From: a virus
Lineage: Duplodnaviria > Caudoviricetes
DNA: 64,000 bases
Reading direction: 5' to 3' (one strand)
IMG/VR virus record: IMGVR_UViG_3300033069_001378
Coordinates: 96,001-160,000 of that record
In this document: one piece after another, positions 1,305 through 33,050 of the stretch
Numbering within the stretch: position 1 is the first letter of the stretch
How the letters are laid out: the number at the start of each line of letters is the position of its first letter
Notes under the pieces: generated by a model
Told to the model about the DNA's origin: nothing
Database searches by the model: none
The model's input: the letters and a program-made list of their open reading frames with translations, nothing else
Program-made: the position numbers and the translations under genes

Positions 1305-1997
1305 ATGGCTTCTAAAGAAGATTTGGAAATAGGGCAAGTAATCTATATCGTGTCCGACAAATCTGGTAATGTTATCCCTGCTATTGTAGCAGAAGAGGTT
1401 GTGATAAAAACTCTTGAAGGTAACTCTACCTCTTGGAAGCTTTTTGTTGGTCCACAAACAAGTAGACAGATTATTGATTCACGAAAGATCACCGGAGACG
1501 TTTACTCGACGATTGAAGAAGTAGGAGATGTTCTACAGGACAGACTCTCAGAGTTCATCAACGGAACCATTGCGGAAACTAAGCAAAGAGCAAAGAAGTG
1601 GTACGGAGTTTATGTTGACGAAAGTGATAAGAGGAACGCTCTAATGTCATCTCTGACCGATGAAACAGGCAAGATTGATGCAGATCAGCTTCTTGAAACT
1701 GTTGATAGGTCAGAAAATGAAACACAGAGCATTCCAAGCAAGGCTTCGACAACAAAGCAACAGCAGAAGACAATCTCTACTTCAAGACGACCAAAGACTG
1801 CTAAGGAAAAACTAAGAGAAGCCTTCGGATCAGATGAAGAAGCACTTCTTGAGGCTGCCGAGCAAAAACAACAATCATTACCAGACCAAAACGGCATCGT
1901 TAAAAAGATAGTCAAGGGTCCAGACGGACAGCCAGTTGAAATGCAGTTTCAACTTGTAAAAGATGAACAAGGAAATGTTGGGTACGTACCTCTATGA
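1305..1997 (+). CDS. Hypothetical protein (start at ATG 1305 or TTG 1296)
   Basis: Long ORF, GGAGG upstream, ATGA overlap with GroEL. Confidence 0.7.
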   Translation: MASKEDLEIGQVIYIVSDKSGNVIPAIVAEEVVIKTLEGNSTSWKLFVGPQTSRQIIDSRKITGDVYSTIEEVGDVLQDRLSEFINGTIAETKQRAKKWYGVYVDESDKRNALMSSLTDETGKIDADQLLETVDRSENETQSIPSKASTTKQQQKTISTSRRPKTAKEKLREAFGSDEEALLEAAEQKQQSLPDQNGIVKKIVKGPDGQPVEMQFQLVKDEQGNVGYVPL

Positions 1998-5636: not shown

Positions 5637-5660
5637 TTAGTGAACTCCCTTATGCGAAAC

Positions 5661-5682
5661 ATACTTATACTCGAATAAGTAT
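5661..5682. promoter_or_regulatory. Divergent pair of ATACTTA motifs (putative late promoters)
   Basis: ATACTTA at 5661-5667 and TAAGTAT at 5676-5682 between divergent genes. Confidence 0.55.
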
Positions 5683-5710
5683 TCGTTTCACATTAGAAAG
5701 GCACACAAAA

Positions 5711-6145
5711 ATGTCAGGTTATAACACATTCAACTATCCAGCTTCGGGATTAAACAATGCGGCAGAGTATATCGCATCGGGACTTCCTTGGGTAACAAGC
5801 TCACAAGCAACCACAAGTCCTTTCTCCTACAACTTCCCATTTGTTACCAATATGATAACGGTAGCAAACTCAGGAACCCTTCCATTGAGAATTGGCTTTA
5901 CCCAAAACGGAGTCAATGGAGTTGGTGGATCAAACTACTTTGTTGTACCTGCTGCTGCAACTGTAGATCTTGACGTAAGAGTGAGAACACTCTATGTTCG
6001 CTCAGACTCAGGCACAATCAGCTACAGCATCTTTGCAGGACTAACACAAATCCCATCCAGAGGATTTCCTCTGTTGACGGGATCTGCTGCTCAATTTAAT
6101 CCAAACGCTACCGGAAGCCAATATGGCTACGACGGAATTGGTTGA
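5711..6145 (+). CDS. Probable virion structural protein
   Basis: Likely start MSGYNTFNY at 5711; G/S/T-rich beta composition. Confidence 0.65.
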   Translation: MSGYNTFNYPASGLNNAAEYIASGLPWVTSSQATTSPFSYNFPFVTNMITVANSGTLPLRIGFTQNGVNGVGGSNYFVVPAAATVDLDVRVRTLYVRSDSGTISYSIFAGLTQIPSRGFPLLTGSAAQFNPNATGSQYGYDGIG

Positions 6146-23321: not shown

Positions 23322-23507
23322 TTAGTCTTTGTCGGTGTGAATGTATAATTGAGGTTCGCCACATTCGCTTGAAGCTTCGATATAGAGAATTGTTCCGTCA
23401 TCGAAATGAATGGAGCAATAATCGTCCTCACGACAACCATCCAAAACAACTATTTGCTTAACCTTCTTTCCAAAGAAAGCGTTGACAATTGCTTGAGTAT
23501 CTTCCAT
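23322..23507 (-). CDS. Small acidic hypothetical protein
   Basis: 61 aa, GGAGA upstream. Confidence 0.55.
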   Translation of the reverse strand: MEDTQAIVNAFFGKKVKQIVVLDGCREDDYCSIHFDDGTILYIEASSECGEPQLYIHTDKD

Positions 23508-23522
23508 TTTGTCTCCGTTAAG

Positions 23523-23660
23523 TTTCCCCGTCTTTCCGGGGTGTCAGGGGCGCGTCTCAATATCTTGGAATCGAACCAAGTTTCACCCATTACTAGGCAG
23601 CTTTTCCATAATAAGCTAATATCAAACCCCAACGCGATTTCCGGTCTTTCCCTGGTGTCA
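23523..23660 (-). repeat. Two copies of a TGACACC..GGAAAGAC.GG hairpin motif (23523-23546 and 23638-23660)
   Basis: TGACACCCCGGAAAGACGGGGAAA and TGACACCAGGGAAAGACCGGAAA. Confidence 0.75.
23557..23625 (-). pseudogene. Degenerate tRNA-like element (possible GTA anticodon, no CCA)
   Basis: TAGCTTATTATGGAAAAGC D-arm, CTTGG-TTCGATT-CCAAG T-arm, weak anticodon arm. Confidence 0.55.
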
Positions 23661-23740
23661 TCCTTTAACGGAATTCCGATTATCCAGTCGTTTAAAGACC
23701 TTTTTGTCGGTTCGGTTTCAAGGAAACGTCTTTTTATATT

Positions 23741-23824
23741 TGGTAGGGATACTCGGACTTGAACCGAGACGCCTTGCGGCAGAAGATTTTGAGTCTCCCG
23801 TGTCTGCCATTCCACCATATCCCC
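23741..23824 (-). tRNA. tRNA-Leu(CAA)
   Basis: GGAGA-CTCAAAA-TCTTC, long variable arm, CCA. Confidence 0.95.
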
Positions 23825-25329: not shown

Positions 25330-25911
25330 TCAGTAAGTCAAAATCTTTGCACGATTTCGTACTACTTCAAGAGTGTGAAGTTCCTTGATAACTCCATCCT
25401 CAAAAACAGTCCCAAGCTTGTCTTCCAGTTGTGGAAGATCGTTTTCATTAACGGTGTGAAAATGTCCATCCACTCCACCAACAAGCTTCATGTGACCCTT
25501 CTTCGACTTCTTGAAAGGTTCATCAACGGGCAGCTTATGTTGAGGATAGATTGTGTATGAACTCAACTGTCCTACGCACACAGAGGCAATGTTGATTCTG
25601 AGATAGGAACGCTCTTCCTTTGTTAGTTCAGGAACCTTCCGAACGTCGATTCTGTTGCCCTCATAGATTCTCAGATTGTCAAGAGACTTTTCATCTACTG
25701 TTTTAAGCCACTTTAGAAGATCGATAATCTCAGAAGATATATCCATTCCAAGGGCAGGCATATCGTATTGAAGAGAAAAACCCATTGAACCGCAAAATGG
25801 TTCAACGAGTCTCTTGGTGCCATCAGGCAAGTCTATTTTTGGAAATTTGGTCTTGTTTCCAGAATACCTAAAAAGCTTTAACGGCTTATCTTTGTTTTTT
25901 TGCTGCTTCAT
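25330..25911 (-). pseudogene. Truncated or chimeric Dam/D12-like DNA adenine methyltransferase
   Basis: FRYSGNKTK, VEPFCGS and GMDIS present; catalytic DPPY motif absent. Confidence 0.6.
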
Positions 25912-27796: not shown

Positions 27797-27973
27797 CTAT
27801 TCTACAATTACCCAAAGATTGTCTTCCGGTTCCATTGTCTCAATTGGATGAATCGATCTCCATCCTTGAGGGATTGGCATAGATGCCCAATGCCAAAGCC
27901 ATGATGCATCCGTTACCGAAAGATTAACGCAACCATGGGATCTTCTTGTTCCAAACTGGTCGTGCCAGAATGC
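27797..27973 (-). pseudogene. Displaced 3' end of the L,D-transpeptidase gene (58 codons + stop, no start)
   Basis: Translates AFWHDQFGTRRSHGCVNLSVTDASWLWHWASMPIPQGWRSIHPIETMEPEDNLWVIVE*, collinear with the C-terminus of 28714-29877. Confidence 0.9.
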
Positions 27974-28717
27974 TCAACTCATTTCTAGTGCGGTACGTAA
28001 TTTCGTTTCTATTTCTTCATCAAATCTTATTCTTAGAAGACGAATATTTGATGATAAGCAAAAATCGTCTTTTATGTGATCTCTCGTTCTAATGTTTGCC
28101 AAGTTTTGTTCAGCAGATATTCTTTTGCTATATGACATAGGCACATAATGTTGTCTGCCGTCGTATTCTATACACAAATTGTGGCTTGGCAAGTAAAAAT
28201 CAAATCTGAGTGGCTTCTTTGCCTTGCATTCTTTGAACACTTTTTGTTCAACGTAGTTCAGGTTGAAAGATTCAAGAAGCAACCTTATTTTTCTTTCTCC
28301 TTTTGATTCGTTGCATTTTGGACAACCATGCTTATCTCTTATCAGATTGGTTGGGTGTGCCTCAAATTGAGATTGATGCTTTTGACATATGACTACAACC
28401 TTTGTTTTATCATTTACATACTCTACTTTAGAGTAGTCGTACTTGTCTCCATGCATCTTTACACATTGTTCAATAAAAGTAGCTTGATTTTTTCTTTGAG
28501 AAACTGACATTTTAACTGCTGTGCATTTTTTGCAACCAACACCATTTATATGGTGCCTTGGTTGAATTAAGAATGGTCCATGTGTAGAGCACACAATCTT
28601 TACTTTACTGATTGCACAAGTATAATCAACATTTGAATAGTCATACAAATCACCGTGTTTTTCTTTAGCTCGATGAATGAACTTTTCCGTCGTGTATGAT
28701 TTGTAATTTGTTTTCAT
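27974..28717 (-). mobile_element. Free-standing homing endonuclease gene (two Cys/His repeats + Vsr/DUF559-like nuclease)
   Basis: HGD.YDYS.V.Y...KV...C..H...GC.KC twice; SKGE...FDFYL...IEYDGRQH...RD..K...C...LLRI; ATGA-coupled to the L,D-transpeptidase stop. Confidence 0.85.
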
Positions 28718-29877
28718 TCTACCACAACCCATAAATCATTTGTGTTTGGAGCGACGATAGGGTGTATCGAACGCCAACCAGGCGGTATTTCAATTTCAGA
28801 CCATCTCCATAACCATTCGGCGTCGCGAATGCTTAAGTTTACACATCCATGTGAACGGCGAGAACCAAAGGAATCGTGATAAAATGCTCCATGCAAAGCA
28901 ATAGCTTCATTGAAATACATAACCCAGGGTACGCCTTCAACAGAATACGGATGAGAACCTCCACCAACCATTTGAGTATACGTAATCTTTCTTCTAACTT
29001 GAAAGATTCCCGGTCTTGTTGGGTGACGAGCAGATCCAGAAGAGATCAAAGTTGCAAATGCCAAATGATCATTTCTATCATAGGCAGTTAGCACTTGTTG
29101 AGCTAGATCAACGTGAACCCATTGAGAGCCTCCAGGAACCTCTGTAGGGCGTTGTCTTGCGTAACCGAGTCGTACTGCGTTCCTGTCTTCTATGTAGCCT
29201 GTAGGCACCGTTATGGCTCCTCTAGCGTGCATGTAGAAGTCCACAGGAAACCTTTCGTACCTGTGAACCGTTCTCTGTGTTCCGCGAAGAGAATCTGTTA
29301 ACTGTGTGTCCCGAATTATGAAAAGAAAACCGCCAGCAGGAGGATTTTGCCAACCAGAAAACGTGCTTGGTTCAAAAACGTCCAATAAGTTTAAAGGAAC
29401 CTCTGTTCCGTTTGGTCGAACTAGAGCAGTTGGTGTTCTGTTAATGAAATAGAGTTCATCGCCGTGTCTTAACATTTGCTCTTCGTTGATATCAAAGGCA
29501 TGACGTCCTCTATATTTTGCCCAAATGAAGTTTTGCGGTCCATTTGCAATAAAGTGCGCTTCTCTTGTTCTTGTTGAAATTGGGCTTAAATATGAGAGTC
29601 TTGTGGCACCAAAAGGCACCAACTCTGCCCATGCGTTTCTGTCATCGCAAGAGGGTACGCATCTTGACACTTGCACAATGTCTCCAAAACGCAACAATGC
29701 CACCGAAGGACCGAAGTTGTCCAACGATGGCTTAACAAAAACGTCTTCCCTTGTTGATATCCAAAAATAGGAAGAGGAATTAGTTTGTTGCTCTTGAGAT
29801 AATGCGATGCTTGGAAAACTTAGCGAAGCGAGTAAAACTGCAATCAGAACATAGATTGATTTTGAATTTGTTATCAT
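28714..29877 (-). CDS. Secreted L,D-transpeptidase (YkuD family)
   Basis: Signal peptide; VHVDLAQQVL.AY, ISSG...TRPG.F, ALHGAF.......SHGCVNLS..DA.WL. Confidence 0.93.
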   Translation of the reverse strand: MITNSKSIYVLIAVLLASLSFPSIALSQEQQTNSSSYFWISTREDVFVKPSLDNFGPSVALLRFGDIVQVSRCVPSCDDRNAWAELVPFGATRLSYLSPISTRTREAHFIANGPQNFIWAKYRGRHAFDINEEQMLRHGDELYFINRTPTALVRPNGTEVPLNLLDVFEPSTFSGWQNPPAGGFLFIIRDTQLTDSLRGTQRTVHRYERFPVDFYMHARGAITVPTGYIEDRNAVRLGYARQRPTEVPGGSQWVHVDLAQQVLTAYDRNDHLAFATLISSGSARHPTRPGIFQVRRKITYTQMVGGGSHPYSVEGVPWVMYFNEAIALHGAFYHDSFGSRRSHGCVNLSIRDAEWLWRWSEIEIPPGWRSIHPIVAPNTNDLWVVVE

Positions 29878-29891
29878 ATAGATAACTATTC

Positions 29892-31010
29892 TCAGTTGTA
29901 CTCCGTTACGTTGCCCTTGCGCAAAAGATAATCGTCCGATACAGACTTAAGCTGGATTCGACCAAAAACTCCATCAAAGCGATGAGGATTGTTATCGAAC
30001 GTTACAGTACGCTCAACGACAGGACGAATGACAATGCCCTCACGGATACATGCAGCCTTTCCAGAAACAGTCTCCCTGCCATTGGTGTAAGTGTCTACAG
30101 CAGCCTTAGAGAATGGTCCACGGTAAACAACAGGAACTCGATCAAGCTTGCAAGCACTAAGAAACTGATCAAGCTCTGCATCGCTAAGGAAAGTGCCGCT
30201 CTCTCGTGATCCTGTGAATACGTCGAAAGCACGGAACTTCACCTCACCAGCAGTACAACCGTAAGCAAGATCCTGAACTCCGTTTCCGTAAATCTCACCG
30301 AGAATGAAGACAGGCTCCTTGTTATTGTCTCCAACTGCATCAACAATCTGCTTCTCAAGCTGATTTGCAATTCGGCAGTAAACGTTTCCTACGTTCTCAA
30401 GATGCTTGTGACGGAAGGAAAGACCCGAGGCTCCAAGACCCTTTGAGGAAACGGTAATACGTGAACCCTCTGGAAGATCCTCAAGCCAACTAGGATCATT
30501 AGGCATAACACCGATGCAACAAAAAGTACCGTGAAGCTTCTCACAGAATACAACCTGCTCACCGTCGTTGAAGAGATTCGGAAACTTCTTGAAGTTCTCG
30601 ATATCATACTTCATTGTACGATGCTGACCTGCATTCATGTAATTACCGCGAAGAGCAACAGGAATCTCTGGCTCCCACTTGACAATTCCAAGTGCCTCTG
30701 TAACGTCATCGCCCTCGTTCCAATCAGGACGAGCACGATAGACAAGACCCTGAGACACGATGCCACGAAGCTTTACAGCCTTGACCTTGTTTCCTCCCGG
30801 TCCCGAAAGCTTGTCAACAAGCCCAAGCTCCTCAAGAATGTTCTTGGGAACGAGTGAAGCCTCTGGAATGTAGGCAACAAGATCACCGTCCTTGAACTCT
30901 CCCTTGCGAACGATTGAACGATAATCACCAATTACCGCGAGTTCTAAATTGTCGGCAGCCGAGTGCTTTTCAAGCACAATCTTATATACTTTTACCTGAA
31001 AATTGCTCAT
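29892..31010 (-). CDS. RNA ligase (Rnl2-like/DRB0094 family with N-terminal OB domain)
   Basis: HSAADNLE, V.KGEF..GD.V.YIP, LRGIVSQGL, EKLHGT, GEIYG.GVQ, FDV, REGIVI, LKSVS..YL; start MSNFQ at 31010. Confidence 0.93.
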   Translation of the reverse strand: MSNFQVKVYKIVLEKHSAADNLELAVIGDYRSIVRKGEFKDGDLVAYIPEASLVPKNILEELGLVDKLSGPGGNKVKAVKLRGIVSQGLVYRARPDWNEGDDVTEALGIVKWEPEIPVALRGNYMNAGQHRTMKYDIENFKKFPNLFNDGEQVVFCEKLHGTFCCIGVMPNDPSWLEDLPEGSRITVSSKGLGASGLSFRHKHLENVGNVYCRIANQLEKQIVDAVGDNNKEPVFILGEIYGNGVQDLAYGCTAGEVKFRAFDVFTGSRESGTFLSDAELDQFLSACKLDRVPVVYRGPFSKAAVDTYTNGRETVSGKAACIREGIVIRPVVERTVTFDNNPHRFDGVFGRIQLKSVSDDYLLRKGNVTEYN

Positions 31011-31689
31011 TTTTAAACTCCAGAAATTGTTCCTTGGTATTTTTGCCATATCCATAAATTTTATGGAACCTTAAATGACAAGCTTCACACAAGCAAACGC
31101 CATTGTCAATTGACAGCCGTTGTTCAACGTATATGTCATAACTATTCAAATGATGACTTACTAAAGTCCCAGATTTAGGTGTCAGACAAACCTGGCATTT
31201 AAAGTCGTCTCTTTTTTTAACAGAGAAAAGCCATTCTTTGTATCCGAAAATAAGTCTTCCTTTTTCTCGATCAGCCGTCTGCAAGCTTGCGTTGTAGTTT
31301 GGATTTTTCTCTCCACTGATTGATTTTGCGTATTCTGTTTTTATACATCCACAACTTTGTGTTGTTTTATTGGTTAGCCTTGTTTTAGAAACCACGCAAC
31401 TGTTTCCACAGTCACATAAACACGTCCACCAACTTGTTCGCCATTTATCTTGATGCGAATAAGACTTAACAGTAAGTTTGCAAAATTTTAAACCGACAAA
31501 ATCCTTTATTTTAGGTCCAGTTTTCAGACAACCACAGCTTTTTACTTTGCCATTTACTAGATTGATGGATTTTACAATCTTGTTGTTTCCACAATCACAT
31601 AACGTCATCCATAACCGCTCAGAACGATTATTTTTGCCTGCTTCCTCAAGCACAGTAAGATTTGCAAATTTGGTTCCGATTTCTATCAT
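30982..31689 (-). mobile_element. Free-standing HNH homing endonuclease gene
   Basis: Two G.KF..LTV...W.CLCDCGN...SCGC repeats, then CQVC...HHLNSY...NGVCLCEACH..FH; AT-rich. Confidence 0.88.
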
Positions 31690-31706
31690 ACGATTAAGTA
31701 TGCATC

Positions 31707-31781
31707 CTAATGCAAAATTGCATCGGCATTGGGATGAGGCTCAATCTTAACCGAATAAACCTTGACTACAAAGTTTGACAT
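31707..31781 (-). pseudogene. Displaced 5' end of the RNA ligase gene
   Basis: Translates MSNFVVKVYSVKIEPHPNADAILH* versus ligase start MSNFQVKVYKIVLEKHSAADNLE. Confidence 0.88.
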
Positions 31782-32414: not shown

Positions 32415-33050
32415 TTATCCCTTGTTTTTTACAAGGAAAAACGACGATCCACCAAGTCCAAGCTCTTCCGCGTAAATCTTGGCAAGCTGCGTACGTGCTG
32501 CGCGAGCATAAACTCCAGGCTCCGCAATTTCGTGAAACGAAAATGGACGTGAACCGATGCGAGAGAAGAATTGAGAGAAGTCTCCTGCGATGCTTCCCTG
32601 TACGACTTCCTCTCCCTTGCCTGGATAAGCGTTCTCGCAATCGGAAGTGCCTACAAGAGTAACATCACTACCGCCTCGGTTAGAGAAGAGAATGCTATCT
32701 TGCTCAAAAGCTCCACCAAGCGCAACGAGGTCTTCCTTGAGATTTCCCGAATCTTGAAGATCAACAACAAAGAAACTCTCTTCGCCAACTTCCTTGGCAG
32801 TATCGGAACCATAGTCTTCAACGTATGAACCCTTAACCTTTGTGACTCCGTAACCCTTTGTTCGTAGGATTGCGTAAAGCTTTCTGTTTAGCGCACCCTT
32901 CTCCTCGCGAGTGTATGGAGTACCCTGATTGCAATCCCTGGCAGAACGCCATGCGGTAATGAAACCGCAATCATGCTTTGCCAAGTGTTCGTGGATACGA
33001 GAGATTGAAGATTCTTGAAGAGAAGTTTTGTCGATTACTAGTACGTTCAT
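32415..33050 (-). CDS. Conserved phage protein
   Basis: ESSISRI, GFITAWR, L.TKGYGVTKVKGSYVE, EESFFV, FEQDSILF pattern. Confidence 0.75.
   Translation of the reverse strand: MNVLVIDKTSLQESSISRIHEHLAKHDCGFITAWRSARDCNQGTPYTREEKGALNRKLYAILRTKGYGVTKVKGSYVEDYGSDTAKEVGEESFFVVDLQDSGNLKEDLVALGGAFEQDSILFSNRGGSDVTLVGTSDCENAYPGKGEEVVQGSIAGDFSQFFSRIGSRPFSFHEIAEPGVYARAARTQLAKIYAEELGLGGSSFFLVKNKG

Follow-up and report, generated by a model that had tools for sequence, protein, structure and literature searches.

The 64,000-nucleotide (nt) stretch of DNA analyzed here (the window; positions 96,001 to 160,000 of IMG/VR virus record IMGVR_UViG_3300033069_001378) carries two free-standing endonuclease genes, each of which lies between an intact gene and a detached copy of one end of that same gene. 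The minus-strand order is GGACT gene, orphan RNA ligase start, HNH endonuclease gene, RNA ligase, L,D-transpeptidase, Vsr-like endonuclease gene, and orphan transpeptidase end (Table 1). Both nuclease units, which we term cassette 1 (HNH) and cassette 2 (Vsr-like), are very probably splicing-free homing elements that replace gene ends.

This layout was proposed in an earlier reading made from the sequence alone, and its coordinates hold with one correction: the true ATG of the RNA ligase, as fixed by relatives, is at 31010 and not at 31055, the first ATG of the listed open reading frame (ORF). Both nuclease genes are AT-rich, as noted there, with GC contents of 34% and 35.5% versus 43–48% in the host genes. 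The orphan C-terminus aligns with residues 331–387 of the intact transpeptidase (E 1.5e-21, about 62–69% identity), while the orphan N-terminus matches residues 1–22 of the intact ligase at 12/22 positions (E 0.027), a weak similarity taken alone. The orphan ligase start keeps its native spacing behind the GGACT gene, and its reading frame stops within cassette 1 at TAG 31709–31707. A 7-bp repeat, GAGCATT, occurs at both junctions of cassette 2 (28889–28883 and 27975–27969). Cassette 2 is wholly coding, and the noncoding part of cassette 1 consists of a 26-nt leader only. A genome-wide self-scan returns only these two cases and one at a DNA ligase gene.

Relatives of the window phage (lineage A) reveal which gene ends are original. 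Lineage B (L003–L006), ~89% identical in nucleotide sequence, contains the Vsr-like cassette and lacks the HNH gene; L336 is a lineage-B contig from another run. L007/L008 (84%) are devoid of both nucleases, L009 and L011 lack the HNH gene, and the transpeptidase of L010 is nuclease-free. Run X6 record 15 is L336 and run X9 record 24 is L005, and each is counted once. Cassette 1 is absent as a clean block from L003–5, L007, L009, and L011, and cassette 2 is absent from L007/L008 and L010. The main prediction of the sequence-only reading, that nuclease-free alleles join the gene body directly to the orphan end, is borne out: the empty ligase of L004 starts with the window orphan sequence (22/22 residues), and the empty transpeptidase of L007 ends with it (57/58 residues). 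In contrast, the in-use ligase start shares 50–59% identity with each of the four empty alleles, as against 82–100% over the 38 codons that follow, and the in-use transpeptidase end is 67% identical to L007 in amino acids and 58% in nucleotides, compared to 90% and 86% in the body. Because the orphans match the empty alleles and the in-use ends diverge, the orphans are the displaced native ends, whereas the in-use ends arrived with the nucleases. A second ligase start occurs at none of the 79 viral ligase loci without HNH. A search for the donor of the new ends in 120 homologues each found none; apart from self matches, the orphan's own lineage scored best. Separately, L007 has an additional 71-residue ORF (5646–5861) that separates its GGACT gene from the empty ligase.

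Table 1. Parts of the two cassettes and their target genes in the window.
Feature	Position	Strand	Basis or remark
Orphan (original) RNA ligase 5′ end, codons 1–22	31716..31781	−	22/22 residues and 94% of nt identical to L004 empty-allele start
Cassette 1, 771 bp: leader, HNH gene, and replacement ligase 5′ end	30945..31715	−	Clean-block absence in relatives
ATACTTA motif, candidate phage promoter element	31695..31701	−	5 nt before HNH start, carried by cassette 1
HNH endonuclease, 235 aa	30982..31689	−	Pfam HNH above cut-off; PHROG HNH families
Replacement ligase 5′ end, codons 1–22	30945..31010	−	First 29 nt overlap HNH 3′ end
RNA ligase (TIGR02306 family), 372 aa, intact hybrid gene	29892..31010	−	Family match
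L,D-transpeptidase (YkuD domain), 387 aa, intact hybrid gene	28714..29877	−	Domain match
Replacement transpeptidase 3′ end, codons 331–387, including S-H-G-C (Cys345)	28714..28887	−	Junction after His329-Gly330
Cassette 2, 914 bp: replacement 3′ end and nuclease gene	27974..28887	−	Absence from L007/L008 and L010
Putative Vsr-fold (EDxHD-like) endonuclease, 247 aa	27974..28717	−	Start overlaps transpeptidase stop as ATGA
Orphan (original) transpeptidase 3′ end, 58 codons and stop, no start codon	27797..27973	−	Directly after nuclease stop

Both junctions lie at conserved coding motifs. The ligase junction follows an H-P-N-A-D motif, which reads H-S-A-A-D in the replacement start, while N-A-D is found in 105/120 homologues. 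The transpeptidase junction is located between His329 and Cys345 of the catalytic YkuD motif, in which the Cys is the nucleophile. Cassette 2 therefore supplies the nucleophile of the hybrid enzyme.

Comparison of filled alleles between the lineages reveals recent transfer. Cassette 2 lies in a 931-bp segment (28902–27972) that is 100% identical between the window and lineage B, third codon positions included, whereas its flanks are 75–97% identical. Likewise, 830 bp around cassette 1 (31736–30907) are 100% identical between the window and L336. Overall, flanking sequence of the two lineages is 70–92% alike. Compared to the empty allele of L004, L336 displays a single mismatch in 1853 upstream bp, located 3 nt before the junction; past the junction, the letters at +3, +6, and +18 are of the cassette type, and those from +39 onwards are of lineage B. 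The two alleles thus differ only by the cassette and by four bases that lie no more than about 20–40 nt from the junctions. Since the empty outgroup alleles carry the letters of L004 at +3 and +18, the event in L336 is a gain and not a precise loss. The conversion tracts, as deduced from the assembled contigs compared, thus span less than 21 nt on the left and 18–39 nt on the right. Such assemblies use 31-letter words, and both crossover intervals are shorter than these words, which argues against a graph chimera. At the level of sequence comparison, these alignments establish a recent horizontal gain, its boundaries, which of the ends is old, and very short conversion tracts. They further demonstrate that empty and filled alleles coexist and that the unit moves horizontally with gene conversion.

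A third cassette lies outside the window (L337, G000:C1:25090-26932, minus strand). It comprises an orphan DNA ligase start of 46 codons (C1 26932–26792), an ATACTTA motif, a 177-residue nuclease that shares the N-terminal repeat of the HNH protein, and a new-start DNA ligase that overlaps the nuclease gene as ATGA. This cassette is 98–100% identical between the lineages (lineage B: L347), while its flanks are 78–94% identical, with no empty counterpart found. P0518, a DNA ligase fragment from this cluster, begins like the C-terminal end of an intein (ending H-N-C), which suggests an intein-bearing DNA ligase allele in a relative.

Single-protein scans of viral contigs returned distant relatives only. 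The closest homologues of the HNH protein, taken one by one, bear on its target. In four other phages, a related HNH gene occupies the same ligase site (P0369 in L092, P0370 in L093, P0374 in L174/175, and P0392 in L362), placed between an orphan ligase start, which ends at or just after H-P-N-A-D, and a new start that overlaps the HNH end. The ligases of the five phages are 40–63% alike, and in 3/4 tested the nearest sequence to the new start is the orphan beside it. The window HNH forms a clade with P0369, P0370, and P0374 (support 95/85), and this comparison demonstrates that one HNH clade is faithful to one site. Moreover, the new start has altered N-A-D residues in 4/5 phages, and in 5/5 the orphan and the new start have different third bases in the Asp codon. 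These changes point to H-P-N-A-D as the putative target of the nuclease. In the wider clade, a related HNH gene lies directly between a tRNA-like gene and the RNA ligase in L255 (1407–3260) and in L268, where it is frameshifted. In L263 (400–1720), an HNH sequence continues in frame into ligase-like OB-fold sequence, possibly as a fusion or a degenerate cassette.

The short tracts and the site fidelity also bear on another origin, in which ordinary intronless homing with a distant cut, or neutral recombination, spreads the nucleases, while the duplicated end is the frozen scar of a single old event, half homologous and half illegitimate, and has since hitch-hiked. T4 seg and mob nucleases indeed cut hundreds to thousands of bp from their own genes (PMC2988022), an illegitimate origin would agree with the 7-bp repeat at the junctions, L255 has no orphan, and the first formation of such a cassette was probably an event of this mixed kind. 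However, a distant cut is expected to leave a long one-sided tract, whereas the crossovers in L336 fall within 21 and 39 nt of the cassette, and undriven exchange is expected to scatter them. In addition, the genome holds three cassettes, each of which is almost 100% identical in the other lineage, and the same ligase site is occupied in five distant phages, mostly with a new start nearest to its own orphan. We consider this origin improbable.

In contrast to a static scar, the preferred reading of gene-end replacement by homing involves an active cycle. Each unit would pair the gene for a site-specific endonuclease with a divergent version of one terminus of the gene that it targets. During co-infection, the nuclease would cut or nick empty alleles at a conserved motif in the coding sequence close to that terminus, and repair would copy the cassette from the donor phage. 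The incoming end would complete the reading frame, so that the gene is whole without splicing and the old end is displaced as an orphan. As neither new junction would rebuild the target, the filled allele would escape further cutting; both filled junctions do differ in sequence from the empty target. Cleavage, cut position, and resistance of the filled allele are steps that we infer. This reading is supported because the same logic has been proven for the WHO elements of yeast (PMC7282813).

The new ends themselves are strongly diverged. Synonymous codons differ in 68–71% of cases at the new ends, compared to 24% in the gene body and about 55% between distant orthologues. For the transpeptidase versus L007, 24/34 codons of identical residues differ in the new end versus 68/280 in the body (p 1e-7). 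As this synonymous divergence is near saturation, the new ends are old and foreign. By analogy with WHO elements, it is plausible that they were selected for resistance. The sequence-only reading described each unit as a nuclease plus a recoded, cleavage-resistant terminus. Its first half stands, as nuclease and new end were transferred together recently, but “recoded” may mean only long-diverged.

Splicing could in principle account for the same layout. If the inserts were self-splicing introns or bypassed regions, the orphan ends would be real exons, and indeed both orphans are intact, all 8/8 differences between the transpeptidase orphans of the window and lineage B are synonymous, and single U/G registers formally exist. 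Yet these registers (1/23 and 2/37) are no more frequent than expected by chance and fail to restore the empty protein, while the synonymous differences are expected if they arose while those ends still coded, as the comparison of L336 with L004 demonstrates directly for the ligase. Rfam yields no intron match in the window or region and no group I match in the genome, and no group II ends are present in the cassettes. Further, no intein family is matched, and the nucleases are separate ORFs with their own starts and stops. With cassettes that are 97–100% coding and host genes that are already whole, there is no room for intron RNA or an in-frame intein, in agreement with the sequence-only reading. 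We thus reject the intron and intein readings and leave splicing or bypassing next to no probability.

The intact orphans might also indicate that the cassettes are kept for the benefit of the phage, either as alternative enzyme ends that are switched by recombination or readthrough, or as a weapon against co-infecting relatives. In the window, the transpeptidase orphan shares the reading frame of the nuclease that ends directly before it, and cutting a competitor's gene is a by-product of homing. The frame, however, is a 1-in-3 chance and is not seen in L053, and old and new ends are only 55–59% alike in DNA, which makes them poor substrates for switching. The lack of decay is explained by recency. 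Phage benefit is compatible with homing, but as the reason for keeping the cassettes it is highly improbable.

Gene-end replacement recurs beyond these sites. In a permutation screen of homologous nuclease loci, in which credibility was judged by eye from layout alone, the Vsr-like family yields five further distinct credible loci out of 80 (3′ ends in L053 and L087; 5′ ends in L017, L070, and L079/80) and the HNH family five out of ~157 (3′ end in L308; 5′ ends in L100, L164, L266, and L299). Among control ORFs, 5/393 were flagged, all weakly. The targets at these further loci include a prohead protease, a gp25-like baseplate protein, and a TnpB-like gene. The layout thus appears to be recurrent and independent of nuclease family or polarity, albeit a minority state. 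Both polarities occur and other targets are used, but for these nuclease families it is a minority mode, seen with 0/11 homologues in cultured phages, which leaves no ready laboratory host. In L299 (1040–2137), the HNH gene lies between the orphan and the new start of a short TnpB-like ORF (NF038281, E 3e-7); here, a nuclease cassette is apparently inserted into another mobile nuclease gene.

Several observations weigh against homing by gene-end replacement. Most homologous nucleases, including all 11 checked in cultured phages, have no duplicated end beside them. In L255/L268, the motif of the ligase behind the HNH gene is intact and an orphan is absent, and L257 holds only a doubtful remnant. 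Moreover, the divergence at synonymous sites in the new ends does not clearly exceed saturation. Finally, no empty transpeptidase allele was found in lineage A or B, so that the available empty allele is that of the 84%-identical relative.

Both nucleases appear to be intact members of homing-endonuclease-type families. The HNH protein consists of two Cys-rich N-terminal repeats and a C-terminal HNH domain (PF01844, 25.3 bits versus a cut-off of 21.4), in which H180, N196, and H205 are invariant; the His, Asn, and Cys columns that are invariant in the family are intact here. The 247-residue nuclease combines two DUF723-type zinc repeats with a nuclease domain, in which E141, D173, H190, and D213 are invariant, and it matches PHROG endonuclease families. 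While no sequence match was found in the PDB, the structural model of this domain (pLDDT, the predicted local distance difference test score, 90.6) yields I-Bth0305I (3r3p) followed by Vsr as top Foldseek matches, with probability 1.0 but an E value of 3e-3 only.

ATACTTA, the motif ahead of the HNH gene, is a candidate promoter, as 15 of its 34 occurrences in the genome are no more than 40 nt away from a start codon versus 13.6% at random (p 1e-5), and it also precedes the HNH genes of L092, L093, and L362. The cassette may be expressed late from this motif. A hairpin in the HNH leader is not significant (z −1.8). ATACTTA also lies 5 nt before the ATG of two paralogous ORFs elsewhere in the genome, which are 51% identical (G000:C1:249396 and 250634, plus strand).

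The window is part of a 252.5-kb virus record in which family and tRNA scans identify tRNAs, a T4-like terminase, and tail genes; the source virus is a jumbo phage. Sequence runs containing it stem mostly from river or freshwater metagenomes. Many named homologues of the RNA ligase and the L,D-transpeptidase come from Myxococcota, which is a weak hint to the host. The anticodon loop is defective in a tRNA-like element (ARAGORN “tRNA-???”) that is found at 23450–23818 and 23554–23626 among ten ordinary tRNAs. An ORF at 25330–25911 resembles a truncated DNA adenine methyltransferase whose C-terminal part abruptly changes character, possibly a frameshift or remnant. The ORF at 32415–33050, which adjoins the GGACT, amidoligase, and amidotransferase-like genes, matches the S-adenosylmethionine lyase family above cut-off (PF23780) and may be an anti-restriction gene. 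Outside the window, a near-duplicate short peptide of 17–23 residues (60–70%) is located at two ORF starts 1 kb apart (G000:C1:448-516 and 1411-1503, plus strand).

Taken as homing, these cassettes would extend to present-day phages a strategy tested in yeast and described in fungal mitochondria, with empty and filled alleles from one lineage. The locus adds population evidence of homing with mapped tracts; it also combines both polarities in a genome with three cassettes and reveals a nuclease clade that is faithful to its motif. The layout marks the probable target site to about 20–40 bp from sequence alone and so opens a way to new site-specific nucleases whose targets are predicted. Further, phage gene termini, including a catalytic segment, may have a history separate from that of the gene body, which misleads phylogenies and start-codon annotation.

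The closest tested precedent, which the sequence-only reading did not name, is the WHO element of Torulaspora and Lachancea, for which allele-specific cleavage and 3′-end replacement have been proven (PMC7282813; bioRxiv 10.64898/2026.08.13.744650). As in the phage cassettes, an endonuclease gene is combined with a target-gene end, the old end is left as a fragment beyond the nuclease, and no splicing is involved. For WHO, resistance of the filled allele has been demonstrated by experiment. WHO elements act on the nuclear FBA1 gene of yeast in a meiotic or diploid context, encode LAGLIDADG nucleases with zinc fingers, replace the 3′ half only, and form tandem clusters. In contrast, the phage cassettes encode HNH and Vsr-like nucleases, occur in both polarities, replace 22–57 codons that overlap the nuclease ORF, use several targets, and are single copies. 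They are thus not members of the WHO family but would work like them. The text of the 2026 preprint does not contain the word phage (bioRxiv 10.64898/2026.08.13.744650).

Gene hybrids are likewise formed by fungal mitochondrial mORFs, according to the parts of the reports considered here, in Glomus atp6, atp9, cox2, and nad3 and Allomyces atp6 (PMC3630166), and partial cob and atp6 duplications are described in Endoconidiophora (PMC6279837). In these accounts, a foreign end again comes with an endonuclease ORF, the native end is stranded downstream and matches nuclease-free relatives, and several genes per genome are affected. The mORFs are organellar, encode LAGLIDADG or GIY-YIG nucleases, and are C-terminal only, and the portions covered describe no empty and filled pair with mapped tracts. 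The Tremella “N-terminal duplication” is a related mitochondrial case, in which 5′ replacement is not clearly established in the sections consulted (PMC7315562).

Among phage systems, T4 seg and mob nucleases are similarly free-standing, show start and stop overlaps with neighbors, have their own late promoter in some cases, and gain resistance by sequence difference; mobE (Aeh1 nrdA) and mobA (topoisomerase) likewise insert inside coding sequence without splicing (PMC2988022). However, seg/mob genes are intergenic and cut far away, while the genes interrupted by mobE and mobA yield two polypeptides each, with neither a replacement end nor an orphan (PMC2988022). The window insertions are intragenic relative to the empty alleles, and their tracts end within 21 and 39 nt, unlike T4-type intergenic homing. 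I-Bth0305I (PDB 3r3p, EDxHD family) is the best fold match of the 247-residue nuclease domain, at 18% identity and the marginal E value given above. The DNA-binding part, with its DUF723-type zinc repeats, is unlike that enzyme. I-Bth0305I itself is intron-encoded. Integrase-driven elements such as e14 and phage 21 at icd, or tRNA-integrating islands, also supply a substitute gene 3′ end and displace the old one. The phage cassettes differ from these in having neither integrase nor att-site excision, in having a nuclease as their sole gene, and in occurring in 5′ polarity.

In the open literature, we found no description of gene-end replacement in phages, which is weak evidence of novelty as subscription papers are largely uncovered. 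As far as the sources could be covered, phage reports describe intergenic free-standing nucleases and gene-splitting insertions, not end replacement (PMC2988022, PMC10448857, PMC12724721); the string “duplicat” is absent from the consulted text of the T4 homing review (PMC2988022), and the end-replacement layout from that of the ICP1 survey (PMC10448857). On balance, we lean towards phage gene-end replacement being a distinct and widespread homing class beside introns, inteins, and intergenic nucleases, in which unrelated families have converged in both polarities and clades stay faithful to their motif across distant phages, rewriting termini and catalytic segments in a contest that resembles the arms race between WHO and FBA1.

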